Of a stretch of DNA of 64,000 nucleotides, positions 26,595 through 30,090 are shown one piece after another; position 1 is the stretch's first letter, and each line of letters opens with the position of its first letter. This stretch comes from an uncultured archaeon (GTDB taxonomy: Archaea > Asgardarchaeota > Thorarchaeia > Thorarchaeales > Thorarchaeaceae). Location of the stretch: assembly GCA_964631415.1 (NCBI GenBank), contig CAZVZC010000004.1, positions 1-64,000 on the forward strand, given 5' to 3'. The notes beneath the pieces are model-generated. The model was given only the letters and a program-made list of their open reading frames with translations, was not told where the DNA came from and ran no database searches. The position numbers and the translations under genes are program-made.

Positions 26595-27683
26595 CTAAGA
26601 GGACTGCTTCGGGGCAGAATCATCTGATTGCCTGCCGAACAGCCTTCTTGACCACTTCTTCCAACCTGAGTGGAGTCCGGACCCCCAAGTCCCTTGCCAC
26701 CACCAGCCCTTTCCAGCCTTCATGTACATAGAGACCTTCATCCCGGATATCACAAGCTGCCACGAGTTGGTGACGGCAACGATGAAGACTATGAACGTCC
26801 AGACACCATTGAACAGGAGTGGCAGGAAGGAAATCTCACCGTACAGGCTTGTCATGTCAAAGAGCGACCACACACCATTGGTGTTATTCCAAACATTGAC
26901 AATAGGCCAGCCAGTGGTGACCAGCACCATGCACACGACGATCCATACGGCTGAGAGAATGGCTTGGAGCAGTAGATTCGCATTGTTCTCTCCTGCCTTG
27001 AAAAACAGATAGCCCTTCGCCGCGCTCACTGCCATCAGAAACGCCATGACACCTAGGACCGGTAGAAATGCGGGGATGAAGCAGAGCTGTATCTGTGGCA
27101 GCAAAAGGATTACTGCGAAGAATAGTCCGAACACAATGTCGGCGACTGCATCAAGCCTGGACTTAGGCGTGAAGACACCGCTTCCAGCGCCTAGGACTCC
27201 CTCAAGGACTGTCTTCTCAGTTGGCGCCTTGTACCTGTCAAGGAATGACAACACTCCAATGACGACGATGGCCAGTCCTACCCAAAACATGACCATGACA
27301 GGGATGTTGAATGGCCAGTTCTCGATAGTCGGGAAGCCCCACATTGATAGGGAGATTCCCACGAAGTAAGCGCCGATGCCGAATGCAATCGCAAGAGCCA
27401 CAAGTGCCATCACCATCCGACCGGCGGGCAGCATGTACTCAGCGGGTATGGGGCCGACCTTCTTGCCAGTCCCAGCATAGGCATTGGCGGCTTCCTTCGG
27501 ATCGCCGAATCGTTCAATGGCCAGCATCACTGAGCCGCGGGTGAGCTTCCCTTGGCCTAGGGACTGGGCCTCCTCAATCAAGTGCGTTCTAATCTCGGTC
27601 AGTGTGTCCTGACTATCAATGGGAAGGTATATCCTGACCCGTTCGAGATACTTCTCAATCATTTCCAATGGTTCTTCACTCAT
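26595..27683 (-). CDS. PadR-associated membrane protein (HAAS-like N-terminus)
   Basis: IEKYL..V...LP, EI.THL and FGDP..A motifs, then multiple TM helices; ATGA overlap with padR. Confidence 0.8.
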   Translation of the reverse strand: MSEEPLEMIEKYLERVRIYLPIDSQDTLTEIRTHLIEEAQSLGQGKLTRGSVMLAIERFGDPKEAANAYAGTGKKVGPIPAEYMLPAGRMVMALVALAIAFGIGAYFVGISLSMWGFPTIENWPFNIPVMVMFWVGLAIVVIGVLSFLDRYKAPTEKTVLEGVLGAGSGVFTPKSRLDAVADIVFGLFFAVILLLPQIQLCFIPAFLPVLGVMAFLMAVSAAKGYLFFKAGENNANLLLQAILSAVWIVVCMVLVTTGWPIVNVWNNTNGVWSLFDMTSLYGEISFLPLLFNGVWTFIVFIVAVTNSWQLVISGMKVSMYMKAGKGWWWQGTWGSGLHSGWKKWSRRLFGRQSDDSAPKQSS

Positions 27684-28054
27684 TGTGCGTCAACTCTCCC
27701 GAGTAGTTCTTTCATTTCATTCGTTAGCACAGACCATGTTTCGGTCATCATCTTGAGGGCTCTCTTGCCCTCGTCCTCAAGGCGGTAGTACTTCTTCGGT
27801 TTGGTTGGGTCCGCATAGTCCCACTCGCTGCTCAGCAGTTTTCGCTCCTTCTCGAGACGACGAAGCAGTGGATACACTGTTCCCTGTTCAAGCTGAAGGA
27901 ATGTCACCTTGTCGCTCAGACGTTTGACAATCTCGTACCCGTAGGCAGGACCTTCCTCCAGCACTGCTAGGATTGCGAGGGCCGCAGCACCTTTCTTCAC
28001 CTCAGTGGACCACCGCTCGAATTCCTCTCTTGCAGGACCAGATCCACCGCTCAC
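27680..28054 (-). CDS. PadR family transcriptional regulator
   Basis: YGYEI, GTVYPLL.RLE and KKYY.L...G motifs. Confidence 0.93.
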   Translation of the reverse strand: MSGGSGPAREEFERWSTEVKKGAAALAILAVLEEGPAYGYEIVKRLSDKVTFLQLEQGTVYPLLRRLEKERKLLSSEWDYADPTKPKKYYRLEDEGKRALKMMTETWSVLTNEMKELLGRVDAQ

Positions 28055-28109
28055 GGCTCAGTACTCGCCTCCCTGTGGGCTGTTTTGCTCATTATTGTGT
28101 TACACCTTT

Positions 28110-28150
28110 TACTATGCGTTACATAGTAGTGTACTACATGCATATATAAA
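28110..28150 (-). promoter_or_regulatory. padR promoter with palindromic operator
   Basis: TACTATG-N5-CATAGTA (28110-28128) downstream of minus-strand TTTATATA. Confidence 0.6.
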
Positions 28151-28363
28151 GCTTGCTTAGTACGCAGCCAGATTCACGCACTGTTTCTGAGCAGCTGAAG
28201 CGCAGCCGACCATTGTAGTCCCCATCACATCCAAATGTATCAGGACCCGCTTCATGTCAATGAAGGCAGGTGATCTCCGGCACATCATCGCAGCACCTGG
28301 TTTCGGAGTACTTCGTTTCTGCTGTTGTTTGCAACGAAACCCTGCATGGAGTAGACTGGTTGA

Positions 28364-28410
28364 TGTACACAAGTGTACGTTAATGTACAGTTATGAGCAA
28401 TATTTATAAG
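28364..28410 (+). promoter_or_regulatory. Three TRP-box-like sites and TATA box of trpB2
   Basis: TGTACA (28364), TGTACG (28374) and TGTACA (28384) at 10-bp period; TTTATAAG at 28403. Confidence 0.75.
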
Positions 28411-28434
28411 ATGACCACCACGACCGCCTGACCC

Positions 28435-28666
28435 TAAGCCTGAGGTGAAGAGTCGCGATGAGCGTGCGTTCCTACCAATGGGGCAGGGGTCTGAAGCGAC
28501 CCTTAAAGCTAGTTTTGTAGATACCGCTCTCGCGCCATATTCTTTCACGGCGTCGTTCTCTCACGAAACAGTCGTGCGAAGACTCGATTCAGGTCATGTC
28601 ATAGCACGTAGTGCAGACGTGAAACCCCACGCCGTCCTCGGGAAACATGAATGTGAGGAATCATAG
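28435..28666 (+). promoter_or_regulatory. Long structured 5' leader of trpB2 (attenuator-like)
   Basis: Alternative helices 28445-28464/28525-28548 versus 28543-28553/28618-28635; TCCTC/GAGGA anti-SD stem. Confidence 0.55.
28458..28520 (+). CDS. Putative Trp-containing leader peptide MSVRSYQWGRGLKRPLKLVL
   Basis: Perfect GAGGTGA SD at 28442-28448, ATG 28458, TGG at 28479, TAG 28518; lies within the trpB2 5' leader. Confidence 0.55.
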   Translation: MSVRSYQWGRGLKRPLKLVL

Positions 28667-29986
28667 ATGACAAGACAACAGATCAGAATCACACTAGGTC
28701 CTGATGATACACCAAAGAGCTACGTGAACATAGTTCCCTACTTGCGGAGCCCACTTCCTCCCCCAATCGACGCGACGACGGGCGAACCGGTGAATCCCGA
28801 AGCGCTGACGAGAATATTCGCGAAAGAGTGCGTGCGACAAGAGGTTTCCCAACAAAGGACTATACCTATCGCTGACGAGGTTAGGGAGGCAATGATCCGT
28901 TTCGGAAGGCCAACCCCACTTCAGAGAGCGTACGGACTTGAAGAGATGCTAAAGACCCCGGCCAGAATCTACTACAAGAGAGAGGATGTTTCGCCGACTG
29001 GCAGTCACAAGACGAACACAGCGCTGGCGCAGTGTTACTATGCTATGAAAGAAGGTGTGGAACGATACACGACCGAAACAGGTGCTGGTCAGTGGGGCTG
29101 CGCTCTCGCCCTCGCATGTTCACACTTCGGTCTCGAAGCAATGATATACATGGTAAGGGTCAGTTACGAACAGAAGGCATATCGTGGAACTCTCATGAGA
29201 CTCTACGGAGCGAAAGTTGTTCCTAGCCCTTCGCAAAACACCGAGTTTGGGAGAAGACTCAATCGAGAACAGCCAGGACACCCCGGATCTTTGGGAATCG
29301 CAATCAGTGAAGCGCTTGAAGATGCGCTTGGCAGCCAGAACACGAAATACAGTCTTGGATCTGTCCTGAACCATGTCTTACTTCATCAGACAGTCATAGG
29401 TCAGGAAGCGAAGCAGCAACTCAATCTAATCGACACGAAGCCAGACTACGTGGTTGGCTGCGTTGGTGGGGGCAGCAACTTCGCGGGCCTGTCATATCCC
29501 TTCATCGCCGACCCCAGATTCAAGGACACCGAGTTCATTGCTGCCGAATCAGACGCCTGCCCCAAGCTCACTCATGGCGAGTACCGCTACGACTTTGGGG
29601 ACACAGCAGGGCTCACACCAAAACTGAAGATGTACACTCTCGGCGCGAACTTCATTCCGCCGAAGATACATGCCGGCGGGCTACGATATCACGGCTCGGC
29701 TCCAACACTAAGCGCACTGATACAGGAGGGCAGGGTCAGACCATTGGCCTATAACCAAATCGACGCCTTGAGTGCGGGGGCCCTCTTCGCAAGGACAGAA
29801 GGCATCGTCCCGGCCCCTGAGTCGTCTCACGCAATAAAGGCAGTCATCGACCTCGCTCTCGAGGCAAAGCAAAGAAACGAAGAGAGAACGATTCTCTTCA
29901 ATCTGTCAGGCCACGGGCATTTCGATATGACAGCCTATGGCTCCTTGATGGATGGCACGCTAAGCGGAGAGAGCATGGCAACATAG
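28667..29986 (+). CDS. trpB2: Tryptophan synthase beta chain 2 (TrpB2, PLP-dependent)
   Basis: [53 protein letters not shown]. Confidence 0.96.
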
Positions 29987-30090
29987 GATTCGATCATGGC
30001 ACATGCTGCTGTCAAATGGCAGACGATGCGTGGAACACTGCAACTACCTGCAGCTGGACTTCCGCCACAGACCAGTAGGAAACGGGTCAT

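Follow-up and report, generated by a model that had tools for sequence, protein, structure and literature searches.

A putative ribosome-read tryptophan sensor with two overlapping reading frames upstream of trpB2 in Thorarchaeia

Results

Two reading frames overlap upstream of trpB2

The subject of this analysis is the leader of the trpB2 gene in a 64,000-nt stretch of DNA, referred to here as the window, from an uncultured member of the Thorarchaeia (GenBank assembly GCA_964631415.1, contig CAZVZC010000004.1, positions 1 to 64,000). The gene (28667..29986, on the + strand, as are all of the leader features described below) encodes a stand-alone TrpB-like pyridoxal phosphate (PLP) enzyme of 439 amino acids (Pfam PALP; NCBIfam NF009057, 664 bits; TIGR01415, 634 bits). 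Two reading frames overlap within its leader. The upstream open reading frame uORF1 (28458..28520) comprises 20 codons (MSVRSYQWGRGLKRPLKLVL), with an ATG at 28458, a TGG at 28479-28481 and a TAG at 28518-28520, and is preceded by the Shine-Dalgarno (SD) sequence GAGGTGA (28442..28448). The second frame, ORF2 (28478..28666), is 62 codons long and lies in the -1 frame with respect to uORF1; its TAG (28664-28666) abuts the trpB2 ATG. The frames meet at the heptamer CCAATGG (28475..28481), in which the Gln-Trp codons of uORF1 overlap the ORF2 ATG (28478-28480), with two bases of that ATG shared with the Trp codon (AUGG). The heptamer was invariant in alignments A1 and A2.

A preliminary description, made from the letters of the window, had proposed that a tryptophan-sensing attenuator precedes trpB2. 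The elements that it listed, namely a TATA box (TTTATAA, 28403..28409), the GAGGTGA sequence, the 20-codon uORF with its single TGG, and the trpB2 SD sequence GAGGA (28655..28659), were all found in place when the sequence was read. SD matches were judged against the general archaeal anti-SD sequence, which is established knowledge, and not against the 3' end of the genome's own 16S rRNA. A purine-rich element 7-8 nt 5' of the trpB2 start codon was kept across the family, and a TATA-like element was located at a constant distance from uORF1 in every genus. From the conserved TATA box, transcription would be expected to start at approximately 28431-28437, which gives a trpB2 leader of roughly 235 nt. 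The leader had been called unusually long for an archaeon; most of it is ORF2 reading frame and not an untranslated 5' region. Most of the long leader is, on this reading, a translated connector.

The whole analysis consisted of comparative sequence analysis of metagenome-assembled genomes from one class, the Thorarchaeia. Since related genomes are not independent, statistics were calculated on genus-level representatives where possible.

The leader is conserved in Thorarchaeia and is restricted to trpB2

Comparison of the trpB2 upstream regions of related genomes revealed a common arrangement: TGTACA boxes and a TATA box in the promoter, then an SD-like element rich in purines, a short ORF with CCAATGG inside it, and a GC hairpin. 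A covariance model built on the 69-nt core of the uORF region matched 57 of the 86 genomes of the family and, at a looser threshold, 59 of the 87 genomes of the class, nearly always as a single copy. Every strong match with enough downstream DNA (56/56) was located 143-177 nt 5' of a trpB2 ortholog, and among the strong matches the element was restricted to this gene. Such recurrence greatly exceeds what chance would produce. Three weak matches at other places looked like chance or decayed copies. One weak match (L084, G042:C345:4333-4398; 29 bits) has CCAATAGG instead of CCAATGG and lies on a short contig without trpB2 downstream; it may be decayed.

Genome G016 carries two trpB2 paralogs, each of which is preceded by its own full leader (L039 and L075, at 11.4 kb and 22.2 kb of G016:C6, 10 kb apart). 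In L075, the second copy, CCAATGG is replaced by CCACTGT and a TTGG follows two codons later; the first UGG is therefore lost and a Trp codon two codons further on is kept. The leader L029 (G018:C167) has an in-frame stop two codons past the Trp codon as well as degraded promoter boxes, and the neighbouring trpB2 gene contains an in-frame TGA; leader and gene seem to have decayed together in G018.

The 85%-complete genome to which the window belongs yielded no TrpA, no indole-3-glycerol-phosphate synthase (IGPS) and no TrpE chorismate-binding domain. TrpA was detected in only 6-7 of the 86 genomes of the family and trpB2 in most of them; trpB2 therefore stands alone in most of these organisms. 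Judging from this gene content, Thorarchaeia without TrpA probably make tryptophan only from scavenged indole.

uORF1 is maintained as a reading frame that contains tryptophan codons

The preliminary description had anticipated that an SD-led uORF with a Trp codon would be conserved upstream of trpB2 in related genomes, and this expectation was borne out: the first UGG was kept in 56 of 57 distinct leaders, within a conserved fold, and CCAATGG itself was found in 55 of the 57. uORF1 was intact in every distinct leader except one, the decayed copy with the broken trpB2. All others retained a start codon in frame with UGG and a stop codon located within or after a hairpin here designated P2.

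The uORF1 frame has 13-29 codons including the TGG and starts with ATG, or with GTG in some genomes of three genera. The distance from start to TGG is 7-12 codons, and the length changes between genera are in whole codons; the SD-like purines are kept through them. In genus g6 a 2-nt deletion within uORF1 is compensated by an ATG 5 nt further upstream. Because this deletion is offset by a shift of the start codon, uORF1 appears to be read as a frame, and we infer that it is translated.

A single Trp codon was present in 43 of 56 uORF1 copies, two were present in 12 (QWHW, QWLW, HWYW, QWDW) and three in one; the second Trp codon recurs across six genera. In 39 of the 56 leaders the uORF1 stop codon was located 9 codons past the TGG, directly after P2. 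The peptide that follows the Trp residue is variable (GPRGPV, GRERPT, VLLSGRT and others). Five different codons stand before CAA, all of them ending in C.

ORF2 is an open frame without protein-level constraint that usually ends at the trpB2 start

ORF2 was open in all 57 distinct leaders, with a length of 41-103 codons and a median of 62; in the same leaders the uORF1 frame and the +1 frame closed at medians of 9 and 23 codons, respectively. The variable part of ORF2 was open in 14 of 14 genus representatives, and each other frame in one of the 14. When these 14 sequences were shuffled with preservation of dinucleotides, the per-genus probability of an open frame was 0.02-0.35, with a product of 10^-12.5.

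In 40 of 56 leaders the ORF2 stop codon and the trpB2 start were separated by -10 to +11 nt, and 15 leaders have an ATGA overlap. Termination-reinitiation in archaea works at such stop-start distances (PMC6728339, PMC10666635), the range for coupled pairs being approximately -8 to +10 nt (PMC10666635); in Haloferax, coupling by reinitiation is abolished at 22 nt (PMC10666635).

Beyond its first ~16 residues, which overlap uORF1 and the hairpin, the ORF2 peptide showed no conservation, and a search against Pfam placed it in no family. Differences were spread evenly over the three codon positions of ORF2 (0.26/0.28/0.30 in genus g3 and 0.60/0.53/0.56 in g6), whereas the adjacent trpB2 genes gave 0.11/0.06/0.45 and 0.20/0.14/0.55, respectively. 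This equal substitution at all codon positions, together with the lack of a Pfam family, rules out ORF2 as a genuine small protein and indicates that the frame is kept open for the passage of ribosomes and not for its product. An in-frame fusion of ORF2 to trpB2 was likewise ruled out, as the frame relation varies and a stop codon always lies between the two.

Two leaders, both from genus g14, have no ATG at the heptamer; they have a TTG that overlaps their second TGG. The unit that is retained is therefore a start codon overlapped by a Trp codon.

The leader is predicted to fold into three nested helices

Single-sequence folds of all leaders gave the same nested architecture, in which helices P0, P1 and P2 enclose both ORF starts. 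The 5' strand of P0 (CCTGAGG, 28439..28445) overlaps the uORF1 SD sequence and its 3' strand (CCTCGGG, 28636..28642) lies within the end of ORF2, approximately 25 nt 5' of the trpB2 start; this helix was observed in the folds, in duplex tests and in pair counts. Through P0 the presumed transcript is paired over its first ~20 nt, in which the uORF1 SD sequence lies, with a distal segment, and in 20 representatives its 3' strand ended 17-33 nt before the trpB2 start. The 5' strand of P1 (CGCGA-T-GAGCG, 28454..28464) contains the uORF1 start codon. Its 3' strand (28525..28538) consists of CGCTC TCGCG (28525-28534) followed by a CCAT that is able to pair with the ATGG at the ORF2 start, as seen in folds and in pair counts from genus g3; across leaders this partner segment lies 6-48 nt after the hairpin. 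The hairpin P2 (GGGTC-TGAAGC-GACCC, 28487..28502) is located just past the Trp codon. Its mean stability is -11.6 kcal/mol, and a spacer of 5 nt separates it from UGG in 33 of 57 leaders.

The strands of these helices diverge between genera and yet stay complementary; P0, for example, is formed by CGTTTCCGAGTGTGG and CCACACTCGGATTCGG in g6 and by GACCACCTTCAAGG and CCTTGAAGGTGGGC in g8. Duplex energies were calculated for narrow windows with a permutation test, an earlier version with long windows having been too noisy. In 20 representatives, cognate P0 strands gave -18.9 kcal/mol and non-cognate strands -12.7 kcal/mol; for P1 the values were -15.6 and -12.7 kcal/mol. In neither case did any of 5000 permutations give a value as low. 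Of two crossed-strand controls, one gave nothing (1814/5000) and the other a slight excess (163/5000).

Pair counts were in agreement with these results. In g6, 88.8% of the cells of P0 were paired, or 91.8% when P2 was included, compared to 27-52% in slid controls, with five doubly changed pairs. In g3, 95.9% of cells were paired over the whole fold, compared to 35-54% in controls, again with five doubly changed pairs, and none of 500 shuffles was as high; the AUGGA/UCCAU pairing at the ORF2 start was kept in 98% of cells. P0 and P1 clearly covary. P2 is read in another uORF1 frame in some g8 genomes, and in L036 and L073 the uORF1 stop codon lies within its loop; P2 therefore appears to act at the RNA level. 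The folding energy of the window leader is -81.4 kcal/mol (z = -1.9). Since P0, P1 and the AUGG/CCAU helix pair the uORF1 SD sequence and both AUGs with segments inside ORF2, an untranslated leader would close on itself.

A pause at the tryptophan codon is not predicted to refold the trpB2 SD region

Several pairings had been predicted in the preliminary description. That of the uORF SD and start region with 28525-28548 was seen in the minimum-energy fold and covaries across genera. The ACGGCGT/ACGCCGT pairing does form, but together with the first helix and not as its alternative. The segment TCCTC (28635-28639) is indeed paired, but its partner is the uORF1 SD region, in P0, and not the trpB2 SD sequence.

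The central proposal had been that a ribosome paused at UGG switches the fold at the trpB2 SD sequence. It was not upheld: when the ribosome footprint was forced to be unpaired in 55 leaders, predicted accessibility of the trpB2 SD/AUG did not change (0.54 compared to 0.52). A ribosome at UGG opened the fold only locally and no conserved alternative helix was found, co-transcriptional folding being outside the scope of these calculations. When the uORF1 SD/AUG region was masked, trpB2 accessibility fell from 0.54 to 0.42 family-wide and rose from 0.40 to 0.46 in the genus of the window (g1). Only 10 of 56 leaders, none of them from g1, had T-runs of at least 5 nt between uORF1 and trpB2; there is therefore no conserved intrinsic terminator. 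Intrinsic oligo-T termination after P1 was ruled out for the same reason, as T-tracts are not conserved. A scan for bacterial-type promoters and terminators gave nothing relevant, and no terminator, within the leader; an Rfam scan of 27000-30000 (E up to 1) gave no family, T-box included, and a tRNA scan of the window gave no tRNA gene.

Promoter boxes and neighbouring genes

Three boxes of the form TGTACA/TGTACG (28364..28389; starts at 28364, 28374 and 28384) lie 5' of the TATA box with a 10-bp period. Such boxes, three or four in number and with the same period, precede the TATA box family-wide, in all of the family loci examined (L002-L015), and they also precede the leaders of Thorarchaeal trp operons. 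They resemble the TRP boxes of Methanothermobacter, which are the binding sites of TrpY (PMC6737238).

A PadR regulator gene (27680-28054) is divergent from trpB2, from which it is separated by an intergenic gap of 613 nt; on the - strand (26595-28054) it overlaps the gene of a HAAS-domain membrane protein. Genome G003, of the same genus, has another upstream neighbour and an unchanged leader, which places PadR outside the trpB2 unit.

Related leaders in other Asgard archaea and before Thorarchaeal trp operons

In another Asgard family (f9, probably Lokiarchaeia), uORFs of 16-25 codons with 4-5 Trp codons, including W-Q-W, are located 160-280 nt before trpB2 (L201, L203, L205, L206 and L207); their peptides end, for example, in ...ITWQWPWRWQ or ...FWRWQWQWRS. 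A segment complementary to the run of Trp codons follows each uORF. These leaders are similar to the Thorarchaeal leader in their position before trpB2, their SD/AUG-led uORF of similar length, the Q-W pair and the complementary segment past the stop codon. They differ from it in the number of Trp codons, 4-5 compared to 1-3 in Thorarchaeia, and in the lack of a long frame to trpB2: no frame comparable to ORF2 was present at the five f9 trpB2 loci, where the -1 frame closes after no more than 11-20 codons. Within the set of loci compared, the putative ORF2 architecture represents a Thorarchaeal variant. Four of the five f9 loci also have a perfect inverted repeat (CACATCTTA / TAAGATGTG) approximately 45 nt before trpB2.

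A few Thorarchaeia have a trp operon (L168-L171, in G022:C5, G015:C111, G010:C110 and G011:C28, respectively). Its trpE leader has a TGTACA-box promoter, a GGTGA-type SD sequence and a uORF of its own, M-T-R-R-x-C-L-Y-x-R-R-D-C-[HV]-W, its stop codon coming 1-6 codons after the Trp. Relative to this uORF, TrpE is encoded in the +1 frame, which is free of stop codons from uORF codon 2 onward. In G010 and G011 the usual TrpE start region is not preceded by any canonical start codon; a TTG is present there in G022, and G015 has a TTG and a GTG in frame. These leaders would fit either a switch to the +1 frame on the Trp codon or the use of a non-canonical start codon. A pattern search for the motif of this leader, with one mismatch allowed, returned only noise.

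Discussion

Proposed mechanism

It is proposed that the trpB2 leader of Thorarchaeia is a ribosome-read tryptophan sensor, in which two overlapping frames are set in a nested RNA fold; on comparative sequence evidence we regard this proposal as evenly poised. In it, the role of sensor would fall to uORF1, since its Trp codon is the one feature to have survived every rearrangement and the related Asgard leaders have 4-5 Trp codons. ORF2 would serve as the conduit, since an open frame that is free of constraint and stops at the trpB2 start has no other explanation. The expected logic is that trpB2 is on when tryptophan is scarce, and a stall at UGG must therefore promote translation of ORF2. Since the stalled ribosome would sit on the ORF2 start, a change of frame by that ribosome itself would be the simplest route.

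With ample Trp-tRNA, UGG would be read and the ribosome would finish at the uORF1 stop codon just past P2 and leave; the leader would then refold, ORF2 would be silent and trpB2 would be poorly expressed. With little Trp-tRNA, the ribosome would wait with its A site over UGG, a position that coincides exactly with the ORF2 start and lies 5 nt short of P2. From there it could enter ORF2 either by a backward slip of one base, after which AUG would be read as Met, or by loss of the 7-10-residue peptide and a restart at AUG. Translation of ORF2 would open P1 and P0 and would keep transcription and translation coupled along the leader, and the ORF2 ribosome would be handed over to trpB2 through termination-reinitiation. 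The TGTACA boxes of the promoter would add control of transcription initiation.

The more specific proposal, that tryptophan is sensed by regulated frame switching, with a starved ribosome at C-CAA-UGG that is held by P2 and moves to the -1 frame, is possible but doubtful. The downstream structure and open -1 frame of programmed -1 shift sites are both present: a structure is usual 5-9 nt downstream of such sites, P2 has a 5-nt spacer in 33 of 57 leaders, and the -1 frame is open in all 57. Several observations weigh against the frame switch or against the proposed sensor as a whole. The site, C CAA UGG, is non-canonical and does not form a slippery heptamer of the type X XXY YYZ. After a -1 slip tRNA-Gln would be mismatched at its middle position, with only the first and third positions able to re-pair. 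A frame slip needs no AUG, yet the AUG is nearly invariant, and a restart at AUG leaves the invariant CCA unexplained. A ribosome stalled at UGG covers the ORF2 start, and plain occlusion would give the opposite logic. P2 by itself was 89.6% paired, with weak covariation. uORF1 usually has no more than one Trp codon, and the G at +4 could be selected for initiation at ORF2 rather than as part of UGG. Finally, trpB2 may not depend on ORF2, as it has its own SD sequence, with a predicted accessibility of approximately 0.5 in the closed fold.

Alternative explanations

Some of these observations would be accommodated if the leader did not sense tryptophan at all, ORF2 and trpB2 being an ordinary coupled pair, uORF1 a mere opener of the fold or untranslated, and UGG a by-product of the AUG-G context. 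The second residue of ORF2 varies (G, A, D, E, V) while AUG and the G at +4 are invariant, 43 of 56 uORF1 copies have one Trp codon, and a conserved block, GAGYGUG, lies 9-11 nt 5' of the ORF2 AUG as a possible weak SD sequence. We nevertheless consider this explanation unlikely. The frame of uORF1 relative to UGG survives several indels, a second Trp codon occurs in six genera, and L075 keeps a Trp codon despite the loss of the first site; the element is found only at trpB2, the related Asgard leaders have 4-5 Trp codons, and a separate Trp-containing uORF precedes the trp operons of the same class.

Classic attenuation by refolding, in which a pause at the Trp codon frees strands that mask or unmask the trpB2 SD sequence or a terminator and ORF2 is irrelevant, is improbable. 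uORF1 and its pairing with the segment past its stop codon are conserved, and the 3' strand of P0 is complementary to SD sequences and so could swap to that of trpB2. Masking of the uORF1 SD/AUG region also lowers the accessibility of the trpB2 ribosome-binding site family-wide, but this effect of the 5' strand is small and is absent from the genus of the window, and masking of the UGG footprint was without effect. A conserved intrinsic terminator is lacking, and refolding gives no account of an unconstrained frame, of 62 codons in the window, that every one of the 57 leaders keeps open and that ends on the trpB2 start.

A sensor made of RNA and independent of stalling, in which the P1/P2 junction (CCAAUGG, GUUUAG, CCAUAU) binds tryptophan, tRNA-Trp or a protein and the bound fold masks the ORF2 start, has a low probability. 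Conserved nucleotides do cluster in the junctions of covarying helices, the invariant C before CAA across five preceding codons points to constraint at the nucleotide level, the ORF2 AUG of g3 is paired with a downstream CCAU, and the logic would be as expected, with tryptophan turning expression off. No Rfam family, T-box included, was matched, however, and the conserved SD sequence, start, frame and stop of uORF1 would be left unexplained, as would the Trp-rich uORFs of the related Asgard leaders; the diversity sampled, one class, is too shallow for an aptamer to be defined.

An inverse logic, in which ORF2 is started independently or after uORF1, a stalled ribosome blocks its start, and trpB2 is on when tryptophan is plentiful and off in starvation, is similarly improbable: a stalled ribosome necessarily covers the nearly invariant ORF2 AUG, and one at the uORF1 stop codon would cover the CCAU partner of that AUG, but such control makes poor physiological sense given that no other Trp-forming enzyme was found in most of these genomes, is at odds with TrpY-type boxes, which are repressive with tryptophan in Methanothermobacter (PMC6737238), would hinder fresh 30S binding at an AUG with P2 starting 6 nt after it, and, if ORF2 followed uORF1, would call for reinitiation 27 nt backwards from the uORF1 stop codon, which is unlikely given that coupling in Haloferax depends on distance and is abolished at 22 nt (PMC10666635).

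Significance

Amino-acid sensing by ribosomes on leader peptides is a textbook bacterial mechanism, and Asgard archaea are the closest prokaryotic relatives of eukaryotes. A literature search found leader-peptide attenuation published only for bacteria and no archaeal case; according to a 2019 paper, little beyond TrpY was known of tryptophan regulation in Archaea (PMC6737238). The element described here is kept across a whole class of Asgard archaea. Its combination of a putative sensing uORF, an overlapping out-of-frame long ORF and helix-buried starts recalls eukaryotic control by overlapping uORFs as much as it does bacterial attenuation. If the frame-switching proposal is true, amino acids would be sensed through recoding at a hungry codon and not through RNA refolding, which would be categorically new, and at the trp operon the ribosome would correspondingly move to the +1 frame on the Trp codon of the uORF and continue straight into TrpE. 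The system bears on transcription-translation coupling in Asgard archaea, on starvation-induced frame changes as a means of regulation, and on the supply of tryptophan in organisms that have only trpB2.

Comparison with known systems

The Thorarchaeal leader shares with TnaC, the arrest peptide that senses free tryptophan, a short leader peptide that has one conserved Trp and a Pro near its C-terminus. It differs in that the residues past the Trp are not conserved, the hairpin is read in other frames in some genomes and the stop codon lies in the loop in two; the conserved residues from Trp to stop and the fixed spacing to a C-terminal Pro that mark a TnaC-type peptide are thus not found. TnaC logic would, moreover, induce expression with tryptophan present.

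The translational attenuation of ermC and cat is similar in that ribosomes stalled on a short leader ORF control a frame further downstream, the start of which is sequestered in a helix formed with the leader. There, the regulated ribosome-binding site is downstream of the stalled ribosome and is opened by refolding, whereas in the Thorarchaeal leader the regulated start would be under the stalled ribosome itself.

With the archaeal gene pairs that are coupled by termination-reinitiation (PMC6728339, PMC10666635), ORF2 and trpB2 share a stop and start that overlap or abut (ATGA, TAG-ATG, 8-nt overlaps) and an SD sequence for the downstream partner. The upstream partner, ORF2, is not the usual protein-coding gene, as its amino acids are unconstrained.

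The frameshift sites of dnaX and of Saccharolobus fucA1 (PMC7026636, PMC1616953) resemble the leader in having a short zero frame, a long -1 frame and a stable hairpin 5 nt downstream, as well as a possible SD-like element 7-9 nt upstream of the shift site and a codon whose tRNA is potentially limiting. Unlike them, the leader has no slippery heptamer, its -1 codon is an AUG and therefore a possible restart codon, and its product would be a disposable connector peptide and not a protein.

A further counterpart is the bacterial leader-peptide attenuator trpL of E. coli (RF00513). Both have an SD-led leader ORF with one or more Trp codons before a Trp gene, a codon region that pairs downstream, and a translating ribosome as the sensor, which in Thorarchaeia is as proposed here; the leader ORF expected of a trpL-type attenuator is present, in that all intact leaders have an SD-led uORF1 with 1-3 Trp codons. 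The Thorarchaeal element gave no Rfam match, and neither a conserved hairpin-plus-U terminator nor demonstrable 2:3/3:4 alternative helices were found in it. It differs from trpL further in being archaeal, in having 1-3 Trp codons and not a tandem pair, and in having a second long frame, coupled to the gene, whose start lies on the Trp codon.

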